Source: Squalus acanthias (Eukaryota). Taken from it: a stretch of 64,000 nucleotides of DNA. The notes below the pieces were generated by a model that had not been told where the DNA came from, made no database searches, and was given only the letters and a program-made list of their open reading frames with translations. The stretch is taken from the NCBI GenBank assembly GCA_030390025.1, contig CM059431.1, forward strand, positions 122,328,001 through 122,392,000, written 5' to 3'. The position numbers and the translations under genes were made by a program. This document shows positions 4,047 to 47,988 of this stretch, piece by piece; within the stretch, counting starts at the first letter, position 1; every line of letters begins with the position of its first letter.

Positions 4047-4791
4047 GGCCCAGAAATTCGGCTCCCTGGCTTCCCGCGGGTGCAAGGATCCCGCGCGCAC
4101 CTACCTACCGCACCTGCCGTTGACCTCTGGGCCCACGGGGACTTCAGCTCCTGGGCCTCCCCCAACTGCCAGCACGCAGTGCTTGCGTGTCCCAGGGGCA
4201 TAGTTCGTGCGATGCGTCCCCTGGGATCACGTGGGCCATGGAGAGCCAATGGCAGCAGACCATCTTTCATTCATAGATTTGACAGGACCTGTCAAATCTA
4301 TGAATTGAAATCGGCCCCAAAACAACACCTAAACTTCAAATAAATTTTTAAAAAACCATCACATTTTTAAAATAACTATAAGTTAAATAAATTTACTACT
4401 TTAAACAAAAATTTAAATTTTTGAAAAAATTAAAATACTTTTTAACAGTGTTAAAAATAAACTTACCTTTCTTTAAAGTATCTAAAAAAGATAAACCTGT
4501 TGAAAAAAAAATTAAATTGTAATTAATTAACCACTTACCTTGTTGAAAACGGGTCTTGCGCCTCCTTTTTAAAAGCGCAGCTTCTTCAATACTTACCCTC
4601 CCAGAGAAACCTGAAAAAAACCCTAAGTTTGCTGCGTGCACACGCGGTTCACCTCTGAACCACTCCCTTCACGAGACCGGAAGTTCCGGTTTCCCACGCA
4701 TGCGCAGTGCATGCAGGAAACCGGCACTTCAGGCACCTTACGGATGAGTACACAGTGCGTACTCACCCAGCAAGTGCCGAATTTTTGGCCC
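4047..4791. mobile_element. Harbinger-type MITE, family A copy 1
   Basis: TIRs GGCCCAGAAATTCGGC / GCCGAATTTTTGGCCC (14/16), 3-bp TSD ATT on both sides; collinear homologue at 18397-19138. Confidence 0.88.
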
Positions 4792-9847: not shown

Positions 9848-12800
9848 ACATTTTTAATGTAAATGTTACTTGAAAGTTTTTAGTGCAAAATGTTACTAAA
9901 ATATTTTTAAGCTATAATGTTACTAAAACATTTTAAAACATTTTTTAATTGATTACATCTTTATGCTCACTATTTGGACACTTATAAAGTTGAGCATAAC
10001 ACATAACGATGCGTTTGGCAGCAGCTACTCACAAAATGGCACAAGTGCTTTAACTTCAATGCTAATTGTCTAAGACAAAAACGAAAACTTTCGCATCTTT
10101 GTTGGTTTCCATGGGAAATGGAATAAGTGAGCAGATTTAAAAATTGTACTCGCCTGATTAATTATTGATTAGAACAAACATCACTGTAAACAGACAAAAT
10201 CACTGGGAAAAGTCGGAAGTATTGGCGTGACCCAGGGGTCAACAGAAGTAATGCCTATACAGGGTAGGTGTTAAAAGCTACCCTGCCTTTCATATCAGGG
10301 GACCAAGCATTCAGCACTGAACACCAGAGGAATTAGCAGAGTGGATAATTGCTTTGGAGAACATTGAATTACAAAAGTAGAACTGTCTGCCAACTGAATC
10401 ATACCTACTTTGACTTTCAGTCCCAAAAGTCTGATCCCTGCCAGTTCCATTAAAAGCCTGCAGCAGTGTAAAATCCTAAAGCCCCAACACTCATAGTTTC
10501 ACAACTCAAGGAATGATAGAATGAATCATAGAATGGTTACAGCACGGAAGAAGGCCATTTGGCCCGTCGAGCCCACGCTGGCTCTCTGCAAGAGCATTTC
10601 ATCTAGTCTCACTCCCCCGCCCTTTCCCCGTAGCCCTGCAATTTTTTTTCCTTCAGGTACTTATCCAACTCCCTTTTGAAAGCCATGATTGAGTCTGCTT
10701 CCACCACCCTTTCAGGCATTGCATTCCAGATCCTAGCCACTCGCTGAGTAAAAAGTTTTTCCTCATGTCGCCTTTGGTTCTTCTGCCAATCACCTTAAAT
10801 TTGTGTCCTCTGGTTATCGACCCGTCTGCCAATGGGAACAGTTTCACTCTATCTACTCTGTCCAGACCCCTCATGATTTTGAACACCTCTATCAAATCTC
10901 CTCTCAATCTTCTCTGCTCTATGGAGAACAAATCCAGCTTCTCCAGTTTATGCACGTAACTGAAGTCCCTCATCCCTGGAATCATTCTCGTAAATCTTTT
11001 CTGCACCCTCTCTAAAGCCTTCACATCCTTCCTAAAGTGCGGTGCCCAGAATTGGACACAATACTCCAGTTTAGGCCAAACCAGTGTTTTATACAGGTTC
11101 ATCATAATGTCCACGCTTTTATACTACCTCTATTCATGAAGCCCAGGGTCCTGTAAGCTTTTTTAACTACATTCTCAGCCTGCCCTGCCACTTTCAATGA
11201 TTTGTGCACATATAACCCTAGGTCTCTCTTTTCATACACCCCCTTTAGGATTGTCCCCTTTAGTTTACATTTCCTCTCTTCATTCTTTCTAACAAAATGT
11301 ATCACTTCACACTTTTCTGCATTAAATTTCATCTGCCACATGTCCACCCATTCCCCCAGCCTGTCTATGTCCTCTTAAGACTATCACTATACTCCTCACT
11401 GTTCACTATACTTCCAAGTTTTGTGTCATCTGCAAATTTTGTAATTGTGCCCTGTACACCCACATCCAAGTCATTAATATATATCAAGAAAAGCAGTAGC
11501 CCTAGAACCGGCCCCTGGGAACACCACTGTATACCTTCCCCCTGTCCGAAAAACAACCATTCACCACTACTCTCTGTTTCCTGTCACTTAGCCAATTTCG
11601 TATCCATGCTGCCACTTTCCCTTTTATTCCATGGGCTTCAACTTTGCTGGCAAGCCTATTATGTGACACTTTGTCGAACGCATTTTAGAAATCCATATAC
11701 GCCATATCCACCGCATTGCCCTCATCAACCCTTTCTGTTACCTCATCAAGAAACTTGTTCAAATTGGTTAAACACGATTTGCCTTTAACAAATCTGTGCT
11801 GGCTTTCCTTAATTAATCTGCACTTGTCCAAGTTACTGTTAATTTTGTCCCTGATTATTGTTTCTAAAAGATTCCTCATTACCGAGGTTAAACTGACTGG
11901 CCTGTAGTTGCTGGGTTTATCTTTACACACTTTGTTGAACAGGAGTGTAACATTTGCAATTCTCCAGTCCTCTGACACCACCCCCGTTTCAAAGGAGGAT
12001 TGGAAGATTATGGCTATACCTCCGCGATTTCTTCCTTCACTTCCCTCAACGTCCTTGGATGCATCCCATCTGGTCCTGGTGACTTATCTACTTTAAGTAC
12101 AACCAGCCTTTCTAGTACCTCCTCTTTATTAATTTATATACCATCCAGTATCTCCTCTACCTCCTCCTTCACTATGTCTATGGCAGCATCTTCTTACTTG
12201 GTAAAGACAGATGCAAAGTACTCATTTAGCACCTCAGCCATACCCCCTGCCTCCATGCGTAGGACTCCTTTTTGATCCCTAATTGGCCCCATCCCTCCTC
12301 TTACTACTTGTTTACTATTTATATGCCTATAGAAGACTTTTGAATTACCTTTTATGTTAGCTGCCATTCTATTCTCATACCCTCTTAGCCCCTCTTATTT
12401 TCTTTTTCACTTCTCCACTGAACTTTCTATATTTAGCCTGATTCTCAGATGTATTCTCGACCTGACATCTGTCATACGTGCTCTTTTTCTGCTTCATCTT
12501 ACTCTCTATCTCTTTCATCATCCAGGGAGCTCTGACTTTAGTTGCTCTACCTTTCCCCCCTGGTGGGAATGTACCTCGACTGTACCCGAACTATTTCCTT
12601 TTTAAAGGCAGCCCATTGCTCCATTACAGTTTTGCCTGCCAATCTTTGATTCTAATTTACCTGGGCCAGATCCGTTCTCATCCCACTGAAACTGGTCTCC
12701 CTCCAATTAAGTATTTTTACTCTAGATTGCTCCCTGTCCTTTTCCATAGCTGATCTAAACCTAATGATACGATGATCACTGTCCCCTAAATGTTCACCTA

Positions 12801-13060
12801 CTGACACTTGCTCCACTTGACCTACCTCTTTCCCCAGAACCAGATCCAGCAATGCCTCCTTCCTTGTTGGGCCGGAAACATACTGATCAAGAAAGTTCTC
12901 CTGAACACACTTCAGAAATTCTTCCCCCTCTCTACCCTTTACATTATTACTATCCCAATCTATCTTAGGATATGATGTGGAGATGCCGGCGTTGGACTGG
13001 GGTGGACAAAAATGAGAAGTCGCACAACACCAGGTTATAGTCCAACAGATTTATTTAATT

Positions 13061-13098
13061 TTACAAGCTTTCGGAGCTGTCGCTCCTTCCTCAGGTAA
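13061..13098 (-). ncRNA. Minimal hammerhead ribozyme motif, mirror copy
   Basis: Exact reverse complement of 13114-13151. Confidence 0.75.
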
Positions 13099-13113
13099 GT
13101 TAGCACTGCTAAC

Positions 13114-13151
13114 TTACCTGAGGAAGGAGCGACAGCTCCGAAAGCTTGTAA
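13114..13151 (+). ncRNA. Minimal type I hammerhead ribozyme motif (Penelope pLTR type)
   Basis: UUAC-CUGAGGA-A-GGAGC(GACA)GCUCC-GAAA-GC-UU-GUAA: CUGANGA and GAAA core boxes, 5-bp stem II, palindromic AAGCUU in place of stem III, 4-bp stem I UUAC/GUAA. Confidence 0.75.
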
Positions 13152-13779
13152 AATTAAATAAATCTGTTGGACTATAACCTGGTGTTGTGCGACTTCTCAT
13201 TTTTATATTAGGATAGTTGAAGTCCCCCATTATCACTACTCTGTAGTTCTTGCATCTCTCTGTAATTTCTCTGCAAATTTGCTCTCCATATTTTTCCCAC
13301 TAGTTGGTGGCCTATAGAATACACCTAGTAGTGCAATGGCACCTCTATTATTTCTTAACTCTAGCCATATAGATTCTGTCCTTAACCCCTCCCGGACATC
13401 CTCTCTCTCCAGCACTGCAACATTCTCCTTAACCAATATTGCCACACCACCTCCTATCTTTCCTTCCCTAACACCTTATATCCTGGAATATTTAATACCC
13501 AATCCTGCCCTTTTTTGAGCCAGGTCTCCGTTAATGCCATGACATCATATTCCCATGTAGCTATATGCGCCTGCAGCTCACCAGCCTTGTTTACGATGTT
13601 TCTCGCGTTCACATACATACACTGTAAACCTATCTTAGACCATCCTTTGTTCTCTCTTAGTCTGGCCCCACCTAATACCTTACTATTTCTTGCTTTAGTG
13701 CTATCCGTCTCTCCCAATCCTTTGTGCACTTTGTTTCTCCTTTCTAATGCTACATCCTGGTGTCCATCCCCCTGCCAAC

Positions 13780-14530
13780 TTAGTTTAAACCCTCCCCAAC
13801 AGCACTAGCAAATCTTCCCGCGGGTATATTGGTCCCAGCTCTGTTGAGGTGCAACCCGTCCGGCCTGTACAGGTCCCACCTCCCCCAGAACCGGCCCCAA
13901 TGCCCGAGGAATCTGAAGCCCTCCCTCCTGCACCATCTCTCCAGCCAAGCATTCATCTGCTCAATCCTTCTATTTCTATACTCACTCGCGCGTGGCACCA
14001 GGAGTAATCCAGATATTACTACCTTTGAGGTCCTGCTTTTTAAACTCTTTCCTAGCTCCCTGAAATCTGCTTGCAGGACCTCATCCCTCTTTCTACCTGT
14101 GTTGTTGGTACCGATATGGACCACGACCTCTGGCTGTTCACCCTCCCCTCTCAGAATATTCTGCAGCCGCTCTGTGACATCCTTAACCCTGGCACCAGGG
14201 AGGCAACATATCATCCTGGAGTCACATCTGTGGCCATAGAAACGCCTGTCTGCTCCCCTAACTATCAAATCCCCTGCCACTATTGCTTTCCCTATCTTCC
14301 TCCTCCCCCCCCACCCCCTGTACAGCTGAGCCACCCATGGTGCCGTGGACTTGGCTCTGGCTGTACTCTCCAGAGGAACCATCGCCCTCACCAGTATTTA
14401 GAACAGAATACTGGTTGGAAAGTGAGATGCACTCAGGGGCCTCCTGCACTACCTGCCAGATCCTCCTCTTCTGTCTGGTGGTCACCCATTCCCTCTCTGC
14501 CTGCACACTTCTTAGCTGCGGGGTGACCAC
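13780..14530 (-). pseudogene. CR1 ORF1 SGNH/GDSL esterase-like domain, frameshifted
   Basis: ORFs 14258-14530 and 13780-14391: ISLSNQYSVL, GDLIVRG, CLPGARVKDV, HIGTN, DGLHLN. Confidence 0.88.
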
Positions 14531-42419: not shown

Positions 42420-43131
42420 CATGATGTGGAGATGCCGGCGTTGGACTAGGGTGGACAAAAATGAGAAGTCGCACAACACCAGGTTATAGTCCAACAGATT
42501 TATTTAATTTTACAAGCTTTCGGAGCGGTTCGCTCCTTCCTCAGGTAGGGTAGCAGTGAGAGAATCTCCCAGAATTCACAATATAAACACAGCGAAAATC
42601 TATTCAAATCTTTCCCTACATCAAAGACACACTAAGAGCACAGCCAAGACAATGAGATGTGTCCCAGGGGGTCCAACGTGTCAAAACACCTGCTGGCTGC
42701 ATATCCTGTCAATTTGTGTTGGTTCTTGTGTTAGTCTTTTTAAAAAAAAAACACCTGGAAAGACCGGCCGTGATGTCAAGTCACGTTCTGTATCGTGACA
42801 TGAACCCGATATCGCGATTGAGGCCATCCTCATGAGTGCGGAAGTTGGCTATCAGTTTCTGCTCTATGATTTTACGCTGTCGTGTATCCCGAAGGCCGCC
42901 TTGGAGAACGCTTACCCGCAGATCCGAGGCTGAATGCCCCTGGCTGCTGAGGTGTTCCCCGACTGGGAGGCAACCCTCCTGCCTGGCGATTGTTGCGCGG
43001 TGTCCGTTCATACGTTGTCTCAGTGTCTGCATGGTCTCGCTGATGTACCATGCTCTGGAGCATCCTTTACTACAACGTATCAGGTAGACAACGTTGGCCG
43101 AGTCACATGAGTATGTACCGTGTACCTGGTG
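42420..43131 (-). mobile_element. 5'-truncated Penelope-like retroelement (GIY-YIG endonuclease end + pLTR)
   Basis: GIY-YIG-type C-terminus NVVYLIRC..WYISET..LRQRMNGHR..PVGEH..E..I..GLN (stop at 42781); 9-bp TSD TTTAAAGGT (42411-19; 43132-40). Confidence 0.92.
42511..42547 (-). ncRNA. Minimal hammerhead ribozyme motif in the pLTR
   Basis: UAC-CUGAGGA-A-GGAGC(GAACC)GCUCC-GAAA-GCUU-GUA; core identical to the 13.1-kb copies, loop II differs. Confidence 0.72.
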
Positions 43132-43143
43132 TTTAAAGGTATT

Positions 43144-43845
43144 GGGGGTGAAATTGAACAGCGCCAGCCTCCTGGCACGGAATGATCTCTTCACCGGAAC
43201 GGGTAGACCCGAAGCATACTCGAAATTGGACCTCAGGCCTTATCTAAATGAGACCAGCGATCTATAGATACCTGTTGTACATCCCCAGGCAGCTTGTTGG
43301 TGAAGCGGATTTAAATTTGCACCCTCAGGTTGGTCCTGGGAGGGGGGGAAGGCGATCGGGAGGTGGCAGAGCGGGGGGTGGCAATGGTCTTCGGGACTGC
43401 TGTGGAGAAAGGAGGAGCGCTCCTGTGCCTCCTAGCTCCACATTCAGTTAAGTATTTTCTTAAACTTACCTTTTTGGTGGAGCCCCCCCAGCAGTCCCTT
43501 TAAGAATTGCTGGTTAGGCAAACAGGCATTATGGCATTTGCATATGCAAATAGGATGTCCAACACCTGTTCCAGGACCCCTTCCTGAAATTGGGCTACGT
43601 TGAGGGCAGCTCAATTTCAGGAAGGGGATCGGAAACAGGTGTTGGACACCCTATTTGCATATGCAAATGGTCTAATGTCTGTTTCAGGCGTGGGCCCCAG
43701 ATGCCTATACTTTAGCCTTCGTCAATACAGTGGGCGGCACACTTCTGATATGGAAGGTGTGCGTGCACATTACCTATCATATCCGACATTTAGGTGCTCA
43801 TTTTATGCCTGTAAAGTGGGCATGGTATCAATGAATTTCTAGGCC
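43144..43845. mobile_element. Harbinger-type MITE, family C
   Basis: Termini GGGGGTGAAATT / AATTTCTAGGCC, TSD ATT (43141-43; 43846-48). Confidence 0.85.
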
Positions 43846-46619: not shown

Positions 46620-47988
46620 GTGGTCACTGGGATCGCAGGCAGATGATTCCATCCCAGATATCCCGGCCACAAAGGGGCTGTCTGGGAAGCATCCTTCCTT
46701 CTGCTTCCTCTTCTTCTGCTTCCTCCTCTTCGGCTTCCTCCTCTTCTGTGTCTTCCTCTTCCCTCTGCAAGCTGATGCTGTAAATGTGAAATGACAGCAT
46801 AAAATGCTGGAAATACTCAGCTGGTCGGGCAGCGACTCAACCTGAGACGTGAACTCTGATTTTCTCTCCAGGGATGTTGCGTGACCTGTTGAGTATTTGC
46901 AGCATGTTCTGTCTTCTCAAAGGCCTTGATTTACCATCCATGCCCTTGCAAGCATCCAGCAGCACTCCCTACACACTTAAAAAACTTTTCACATCTATTT
47001 TAGAAAGCCACCACTTCAATAAAATCAAAAAATCCAGTCCAAAACCTTAAATCCAAACTTACCTGAATGATGTCTGCACCTTTAAGAGGTGCAGACGTCA
47101 CCACTGTCAGCCTGTTTGCACACCAGATTAACCTGGCGTTCTTAGGACCCAGCATGGTTCTCATTATATGAGTGCTGGGCACGAGTGTTGGGGTTGCGGA
47201 GGGGATTCATCAGCCAGGTGCAGAGCCTTGTCTCTGAGCAGCCACCCTTGAGTTTCATGTGATGGCTGGAAGATTGCTGGCTCACCAGACTGGCGCAGGA
47301 TGAAGGCATGATAATTGCTGCCAGGATAGCATGCATTGACCATCAGGAAGCACTGGGTGTGGTCGCACAACAACTGCACGTTAAATGAGTGATAGCCTTT
47401 GCGGTTACGGAGGATCTCAGGGTTGTTATGCGGCACCCGTAAAGCCACGTGGATGCAGTCAATGGCGCTCTGCCCCATGGGGAAGCCCACAATCCTAGCA
47501 AAGCCACATGCACGCTCGTCCTGCTTCTCTCTGCTCAGACAGAAGAAAATGTAGTCCCTACTCTTGGTGTAGAGAGCCTCTGTGACCTCCCGGATGCAGC
47601 GATGGACGGCGAACTGTGAGATGTTAGCTATGTCTCCTGCTGCAGACTGGAAGGTTGCGCTATTGAAGAAATTGAGGGCCACAGCGACCTTGAGGGCTAC
47701 TGGGCTTGCTGTTGTCACCCTGCTCTCAGGCTGTAGGTCTGGTTGCAGGAGGTGTCAGTGTTCTGTGATCACCACTTTGGTGAAACGGAGACTCCTAATA
47801 CACTGCTTCTTGCTTAAATGGATATAAGTAAAGTGGTTTCGGTAGACCCTAGGTGGGTAAGGCCCCCTTTTGAGAGCCCTCATGGCCCTCCTCCTCCCTC
47901 TGCGCGCATCTTCTCCTTTTCTTCGCTGCCTCTGCTCCCTCTCCCGAAGATACTCGAGCATGAGGGGGACTGCCAGTAGAGCCCCCAT
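46620..47988 (-). pseudogene. Harbinger transposase pseudogene
   Basis: MGALLAVP..YPPRVY, KVAVALNFF, AIDCIHVAL, NRKGYHS, YPGS, GWLLRDK; frameshifts; acidic tail at ~46700-46765. Confidence 0.88.
46790..46915. mobile_element. Decayed inverted-repeat element, probably a second Penelope pLTR family
   Basis: ATGCTGGAAATACTCAGCTGGTC / GACCTGTTGAGTATTTGCAGCAT imperfect arms; family assignment from recall of similar shark repeats. Confidence 0.55.

Follow-up and report, generated by a model that had tools for sequence, protein, structure and literature searches.

The window, the whole stretch of 64,000 nucleotides of Squalus acanthias DNA that was analyzed, contains at 12973–13204 a palindromic cassette, which interrupts the endonuclease part of a decayed LINE. 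The insert comprises 232 bp in total, and there is no ORF in it. The host LINE is recognized by its ORF1, having a GDSL-type esterase domain (Pfam Lipase_GDSL_2, 50 bits, cut-off 32.9), and by the remnants of an endonuclease (Exo_endo_phos_2, 22.3 bits) and a reverse transcriptase (RVT_1, 20.4 bits), the latter two being under their cut-offs. Elsewhere in the window there is an ORF of 196 amino acids (47164–47754, − strand), which by eye resembles a DDE transposase of the Harbinger/PIF type or a HARBI1-like gene. The features concerning the cassette are as follows.

10653–14397, − strand: decayed LINE, host of the cassette (from ORFs and Pfam)
12962–12972: target-site duplication, left copy, ATCTTAGGATA (10 of 11 positions identical to 13205–13215)
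12973–13007, − strand: 35-nt tail of a Penelope-like element (PLE), on one arm only, reading GTCCACCCCAGTCCAACGCCGGCATCTCCACATCA on the − strand (from the sequence and the matching stretch in the full-length copy L053)
13008–13105, − strand: left arm, end of the PLE pseudo-LTR, with the sense strand on the − strand (98 nt, 100% complementary to the right arm)
13061–13098, − strand: minimal hammerhead motif of the left arm, predicted cut at 13065/13064 (from the core at 13065–13094 and family conservation)
13106: single central base, C on the + strand, putative turn-around point (from the repeat search)
13107–13204, + strand: right arm, PLE end, with the sense strand on the + strand, tail-less, ending in ...CTCATTTTT (from the sequence and the repeat search)
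13114–13151, + strand: minimal hammerhead motif of the right arm, predicted cut at 13147/13148 (from the sequence, covariation and conservation)
13205–13215: target-site duplication, right copy, ATATTAGGATA (from the sequence)
42421–43239, − strand: second PLE fragment, nonpalindromic, with a GIY-YIG remnant, a 3′ region with a hammerhead, and the tail (from the sequence search)

The repeat search identifies the arms as one inverted pair, in which the two 98-nt arms are 1 nt apart, confirming the perfect palindrome with a 1-nt spacer that was described in the first-pass annotation. A core of 30 nt, CTGAGGAAGGAGCGACAGCTCCGAAAGCTT, occurs exactly two times in the window, at 13118–13147 (+) and at 13065–13094 (−), where none is expected from 100 shuffles. 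The palindrome of 13008–13204 is far beyond chance, and its structure is found again across the genome, where the reversed control pattern gives no match. The 35 extra bases of the left arm (12973–13007) are absent from the right arm. The flanks, which had been noted as resembling a target-site duplication, are indeed an 11-bp duplication with one mismatch, and the cassette looks young, as was also proposed. The left arm shares 95.7% identity with the 3′ end of the second PLE fragment of the window.

In run X1, one RNA-or-DNA contig fuses 12961 with 13205, which is the insert-free form; this contig probably stems from another copy of the host LINE. In the contigs of X1, X4, and X19, the summed depth over the final ~80 nt of the element, tail included, is 10 to 100 times that over the hammerhead region (12969–13053 and 13156–13206 compared with 13054–13155), contig depth being a poor measure. 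Heavy 5′ truncation, or a greater upstream divergence, could account for this contrast.

The second PLE fragment is the only other copy of the element in the window, at a distance of 29 kb, and no inverted partner of it is found within the window. It extends beyond the point that corresponds to the centre of the palindrome, and it adjoins a GIY-YIG-type ORF remnant (42781–43239, − strand). Its hammerhead has AAC as loop II, rather than GACA, and a stem of 6 bp. The ORF remnant of 152 amino acids gives no match in Pfam; it is 87% identical, over 116 amino acids, to the C terminus of the full-length ORF of L053, which is a full-length copy of the family at G000 C7:134550400–134556600, 12 Mb away. 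The open frame of L053 encodes 921 amino acids, with matches to RVT_1 (35.2 bits, cut-off 29.6) and to GIY-YIG (22.6 bits, at the cut-off of 22.6). An identical 29-nt hammerhead core is present on the ORF strand on both sides of this ORF, at 4628–4656 and at 1490–1518, as located with a variable-gap pattern, these motifs being missed by the fixed-spacing pattern. The counterpart of the 35-nt tail in L053 has 2 base differences and encodes STPVQHRHLRIM; its end coincides with the first Met of the ORF, which implies that the inserted copies end at the start codon. It is also seen that the hammerhead cut predicted in L053 4533–4656 (−) lies ~91 nt upstream of the first ATG of the ORF; such a cut would leave the ORF a short leader.

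The canonical marks of PLEs are a reverse transcriptase combined with a GIY-YIG nuclease, pseudo-LTRs, hammerheads, and a tail (PMC8557442, PMC3846280, and PMC11167929, in the parts of these texts that are available). Judged by its sequence, the family is a canonical EN+ PLE, with hammerhead-bearing pseudo-LTRs flanking the ORF. The proposal that the arms of the cassette are derived from a hammerhead-bearing PLE pseudo-LTR is thereby borne out, both by the GIY-YIG neighbor of the second fragment and by the reverse transcriptase/GIY-YIG ORF of L053.

Each strand of the palindrome reads UUAC-CUGAGGA-A-GGAGC-GACA-GCUCC-GAAA-GCUU-GUAA, followed by AAUAAA (13114–13151 on the + strand and 13098–13061 on the − strand), such that a hammerhead motif is seen on each strand, as had been annotated. 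In the right arm, the parts of this motif are helix I (UUAC/GUAA), the CUGAGGA box, an extra A, helix II with its loop (GGAGC-GACA-GCUCC), the GAAA box, the palindromic GC, U16.1, and U17. The minimal hammerhead ribozymes (min-HHRs) of metazoan PLEs have CUGANGA and GAAA boxes, a base between positions 9 and 10.1, a G10.1–C11.1 pair, palindromic 15.2–16.2 positions, and a helix I of 4 to 5 bp, the loop of helix III being absent (PMC4209133). At the sequence level, the motif of the cassette agrees with the published min-HHR in every one of these features, including the short helix I and the absence of a helix III loop. Helix II has 5 to 6 bp here, compared with 7 to 8 bp in the Schistosoma families (PMC4209133). 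The number of intact motifs in the genome is 49,609, obtained with a pattern of our own, which is not the descriptor of PMC4209133, the numbers reported there being ~4,000 for coelacanth and ~9,000 for Xenopus.

The conservation of the motif has been examined in 45 distinct full arms, which are taken by an anchor outside the motif, avoiding selection on the motif itself. The CUGANGA box is kept in 43 arms and GAAAGCUYG in 44, and both are kept in 42 of the 45, which bears on the conservation across family copies, whose absence the first-pass annotation had listed among its refuting conditions. The aligned arms show no variation at G5, A6, G8, A9, the extra A, and G10.1–C11.1 (the pair 24–41, being G10.1–C11.1, is G–C in 45 of 45 arms), and the palindromic A-G-C-U is also present in all 45; H17 is U or C, and loop II is variable in length and in sequence. 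Helix II is paired for 99.1% and helix I for 91.7%, with the helix I pair 13–52 being C–G in 22 arms, U–A in 18, and U–G in 2. When the partners are slid along each other, the pairing falls from 91% to 32–44%. The covariation score is 0.129, which is reached by none of 500 shuffles; because the sampled arms are related, this covariation probably reflects one or a few subfamily events. Position N7 is C in 18 arms, G in 17, A in 5, and T in 3. Within a pair, this position frequently differs between the arms, CTGACGA versus CTGATGA (for example, 235615/235676, 1460037/1460072, and 5255043/5255088 of G000 C1), which suggests that the T form is partly due to CpG decay after insertion, and that part of the variation at N7 is not selected.

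The element is abundant in the genome. With a 30-nt anchor taken from downstream of the hammerhead, 56,168 and 56,160 matches are found on the two strands (with at most 3 mismatches), the reversed control giving 0; there are about 112,000 copies of the element ends. Among the first 100 places listed, neighboring anchors less than 3 kb apart are arranged head-to-head in 31 cases, tail-to-tail in 3, and in the same direction in 4. Using exact 11-mers with 20 to 124 nt between them, 16,380 short head-to-head pairs are found, the reversed control again being 0, and 2,701 short head-to-head pairs have 20 to 70 nt between the anchors. The tail is present on exactly one arm in all 75 pairs inspected, the cassette included; these 75 comprise the same-centre copies described below other than L001, pairs of the first loci, and another 47 pairs. 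In an inspected subset of the pairs, the arm identity is mostly 88 to 99% (two lower values being extension artefacts), the spacers measure between 0 and about 50 nt, and every pair is flanked by a target duplication of its own, of about 8 to 13 bp when judged by eye. These duplications are AT-rich and several contain ATT, also as judged by eye and with no statistic attached. Which of the two arms is the longer one varies: of 50 short pairs, 23 have a tail arm shorter than its partner and 12 a longer one, the difference being at most 3 nt in the other 15. Since either arm can be longer, no single fixed order of events fits all pairs.

Six loci of G000 C1 (L020, L036, L038, L040, L044, and L046) are independent fold-back insertions with different centres at one site of another abundant repeat, with the shared flank ...GCCTCT(A/G)TTTAT(G/A)AAGCCCAGGATCCC..., and L031 and L042 have a second host repeat in common. 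Such shared sites could reflect a target preference or merely a very common host repeat.

This anatomy is known from PLE insertions, in which an inverted 5′-truncated copy lies beside the pseudo-LTR and a tail of 30 to 40 bp is present at one end (the available portions of PMC8557442 and PMC3846280); the suggestion that inverted pseudo-LTRs are a known product of PLE insertion is likewise found in these portions. Palindromes at the inverted junction have been interpreted as the result of self-priming (Arkhipova et al. 2013, PMC3846280, again from the part available).

From its sequence, the hammerhead of the cassette is predicted to cut after U17, being 13147 on the + strand and 13065 on the − strand. 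Its constraint pattern is that of a hammerhead, with only N7 being free, G10.1–C11.1 being fixed, 15.2–16.2 being palindromic, and H17 being U or C, and this pattern argues against the rather unlikely alternative that CUGANGA...GAAA, although conserved, does not function as a ribozyme and is kept for another purpose, such as serving the pseudo-LTR as a structure for protein binding or template recognition, in which case its likeness to a hammerhead would have no function in animals. For this alternative speaks the outcome of the covariance-model search, which had been proposed as a check and in which the Rfam hammerhead models (types I–III, HH9, and HH10) give no match in 12500–13700 at E values up to 10, and no match at the gathering score in the whole 64-kb window; presumably, these models miss the motif because they expect a helix III hairpin, which is absent from the minimal form. 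Helix I is limited to 4 bp, and two molecules are needed for a helix III. The fold of one motif with only helix I and helix II has an energy of −9.8 kcal/mol, compared with −10.7 kcal/mol for the minimum free energy fold, and a two-strand thermodynamic fold favors another pairing and gives no double hammerhead, such that the dimer is thermodynamically unfavored. The minimal hammerheads of PLEs also cut poorly in vitro (PMC4209133), requiring either a dimer or the protein, and for the PLE of Anolis it is found that cleavage is not necessary for insertion in vitro and that no RNA-seq reads end at the site (PMC11167929). Against the same alternative, the Anolis motif is cleaved when protein is added, and the C3G/G8C double mutant partly rescues the activity (PMC11167929). 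The first-pass annotation had considered a dimer formed via stem III; since the two motifs of the cassette are on opposite strands, a same-strand dimer is not possible at this locus.

The inner ends of the arms bear on the same question. In 100 arms of 50 short pairs, a sample picked for 20 to 70 nt between the anchors and thereby biased to short arms, the commonest start is +1, which is the predicted 5′ product end (G1.1). It is seen in 10 arms, 5 of these without overlap, with L065 looking like an alignment artefact and with L056 and L057 maybe being one event. The other frequent starts are −14 (9 arms), −2 (7 arms), +3 (7 arms), and −5 (5 arms), several of which are at natural palindromes. 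At the predicted cut site, arm starts are only mildly favored when compared with −14, −2, and +3, which is in line with the alternative of a motif that does not cut, and the mild mode at +1 was rejected as evidence of cleavage.

The two motifs face each other, so that read-through RNA would fold into a 98-bp hairpin in which both are buried. In agreement with this proposal of the first-pass annotation, a hairpin is predicted for the read-through RNA of either strand (−186.7 or −180.2 kcal/mol), with the motif buried in the predicted fold. A perfect hairpin of such predicted stability, together with several sub-threshold matches to miRNA models (the best having 56.4 bits with a cut-off of 171), is what could be put forward for a host small-RNA gene, a precursor of miRNA or siRNA co-opted from the repeat. 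This is very improbable, as these matches are far under the gathering scores and are equal on both strands, which is expected of any long hairpin, and as the locus is one of 16,380 alike, lying within a dead LINE. No miRNA family (MIR6224, mir-1597, and others) is matched at the gathering threshold when 12500–13700 is compared with Rfam.

The centre of the palindrome, TTAGCA-C-TGCTAA, is found at 4 exact sites and 1 mutated site in the genome, with different flanks and with its own target duplication at each site. Such recurrence is in agreement with the possibility, improbable on balance, that the palindrome itself is a small non-autonomous mobile unit (mini-PLE or retrozyme-like), which is copied whole and inherits its centre. 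It would also be in agreement with the shorter tail-less arm of L001, as expected from 5′ truncation of a palindromic template, and with the recurrence of two centres in the young subfamily. In the 31 pairs of this subfamily that have their centre within 44 nt of helix I, the cassette's centre occurs 4 times and GAGA(A/T)TCTC 5 times, four centres occur 2 times each, and 14 occur once. These 31 pairs thus have 20 different centres, which argues against copying as a unit and points to a mirror half that is, most likely, newly formed with every insertion. The exact 47-nt core of the arm occurs 503 + 487 = 990 times in the genome, so that the copies with the same centre represent only ~1% of the lineage. 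The tail-less arm of 4 of the 5 same-centre copies ends at the family-wide position, which in the case of unit copying would require an RNA with its 5′ end exactly there. In the inspected pairs, a few tail-less arms end some bases earlier. Also speaking against unit copying, shorter tail-less ends are seen in unrelated pairs (L043 and L052). The recurrent centre GAGA(A/T)TCTC is located on a natural near-palindrome of the element, as would be the case for a turn-around hot spot.

The view, in the first-pass annotation, of the cassette as a distinct strand-symmetric mobilized unit is not supported by the 20 centres, the 990 arm cores, and the family-typical outer ends. Of its check, whether the centre is unique or recurrent, the recurrence stands, at 5 sites, and the mobilization as a unit is not favored by the 31 pairs. 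From the sequences of these pairs, it is most likely that the mirror half is made anew per insertion, with hot spots, rather than spreading as a unit. The two centres that recur 4 to 5 times in the 31 pairs do exceed a rough uniform expectation, and this excess may be due to hot spots or to some copying of whole palindromes.

The cassette is, with high probability, a 5′-truncated, head-to-head double copy of a PLE pseudo-LTR with an 11-bp target duplication in a decayed LINE, likely generated in one event and likely inert. The mechanism proposed for its formation is derived from its anatomy and from the published biochemistry of other PLEs. The GIY-YIG nuclease would nick an AT-rich target with a stagger, and reverse transcription would begin within the RNA at one of two neighboring sites, such that the 35-nt tail is retained at one outer end and is missing at the other. 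The cDNA would then grow to about 100 to 135 nt, traversing the hammerhead and reaching a point that lies 7 nt upstream of helix I, where the enzyme may turn round, either by self-priming or by a jump onto a second cDNA, generating the mirror arm. The hammerhead would cut after U17 only with a second copy on the same strand or with the protein of the element.

A more extended, joint reading, to which we give only a small probability, is that the more than 16,000 stumps are a fossil record of the copying process, in which the arms have a one-RNA origin and in which a footprint of cleavage in vivo is preserved. The one-tail rule (75 of 75 pairs), together with the mostly symmetric centres, would then suggest that a single RNA molecule is the template of both arms. 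On opposite target strands, two reverse transcriptase subunits would begin at neighboring sites, and the products would be joined by a template jump. The modal G1.1 start of the arms in short pairs could be the footprint of self-cleavage of the hammerhead in living cells. To our knowledge, such a footprint of self-cleavage in vivo has never been seen for the hammerheads of animal PLEs.

The cassette resembles the PLE insertion units, as far as these are described in the available parts of PMC8557442 and PMC3846280, in being a head-to-head inverted repeat with a palindromic junction and a tail at one end, and also in the variable target duplication, the heavy 5′ truncation, and the hammerhead in the pseudo-LTR. 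Unlike the units in these parts, it consists of just two stumps, with no ORF between or beside them; there are 16,380 of such short pairs in the genome, and the tail of this family ends at the start codon of the ORF. Dual motifs on opposite strands, 100 to 700 bp apart, have also been noted in PLEs (PMC4209133). For PAc, the Poseidon element of Anolis carolinensis, it has been shown in vitro that two adjacent internal start sites of reverse transcription bound the tail, that both target strands are cut and extended, and that the targets are AT-rich, with an ATT cleavage motif (PMC11167929). The anatomy of the family described here matches this account, with a tail that two start sites would explain, with targets that look AT-rich by eye, and with a hammerhead at the junction of pseudo-LTR and ORF; cutting and extension of both target strands would fit it as well. 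The geometry is different: the start sites of PAc are 111 to 118 bp inside the ORF, whereas the copies here end at about −36 and 0 from the ATG, and the cut site of PAc is 26 bp after the start codon (PMC11167929), whereas the cut predicted here is ~91 nt upstream of the ATG.

ORF-less derivatives of PLEs have been considered as well. Non-LTR retrozymes, which are tandem hammerhead repeats giving circular RNAs, were reportedly described by Cervera and De la Pena in 2020. As characterized in the available part of 10.64898/2026.07.22.740005, these are same-strand tandem repeats, able to form dimeric ribozymes and circles, and in that part retrozymes are also counted in one cartilaginous fish. 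Like these, the cassette is an ORF-less, hammerhead-bearing derivative of a PLE pseudo-LTR; unlike the retrozymes of that part, it lacks a tandem partner and bears one motif on each strand. An identity as a non-LTR retrozyme was rejected, given the opposite strands of the motifs and the 29 kb that separate the cassette from the single other copy in the window. In the literature, no description of this PLE family is found, while the supplements of PMC4209133 and PMC11167929 may list similar motifs. The kind of insertion is already well described, and the cassette is an ordinary representative of this known kind.

By itself, the cassette matters little, being a dead by-product of a known class of retroelements. 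Perfect palindromes of this type can break assemblies and can mimic genes of hairpin RNAs, as is seen from the sub-threshold miRNA matches. The huge number of such stumps, with their clean duplications, one-sided tails, and variable centres, is a large natural data set, which could be used for testing the models of Penelope insertion and also for testing whether cleavage by the minimal hammerhead takes place in vivo at all.
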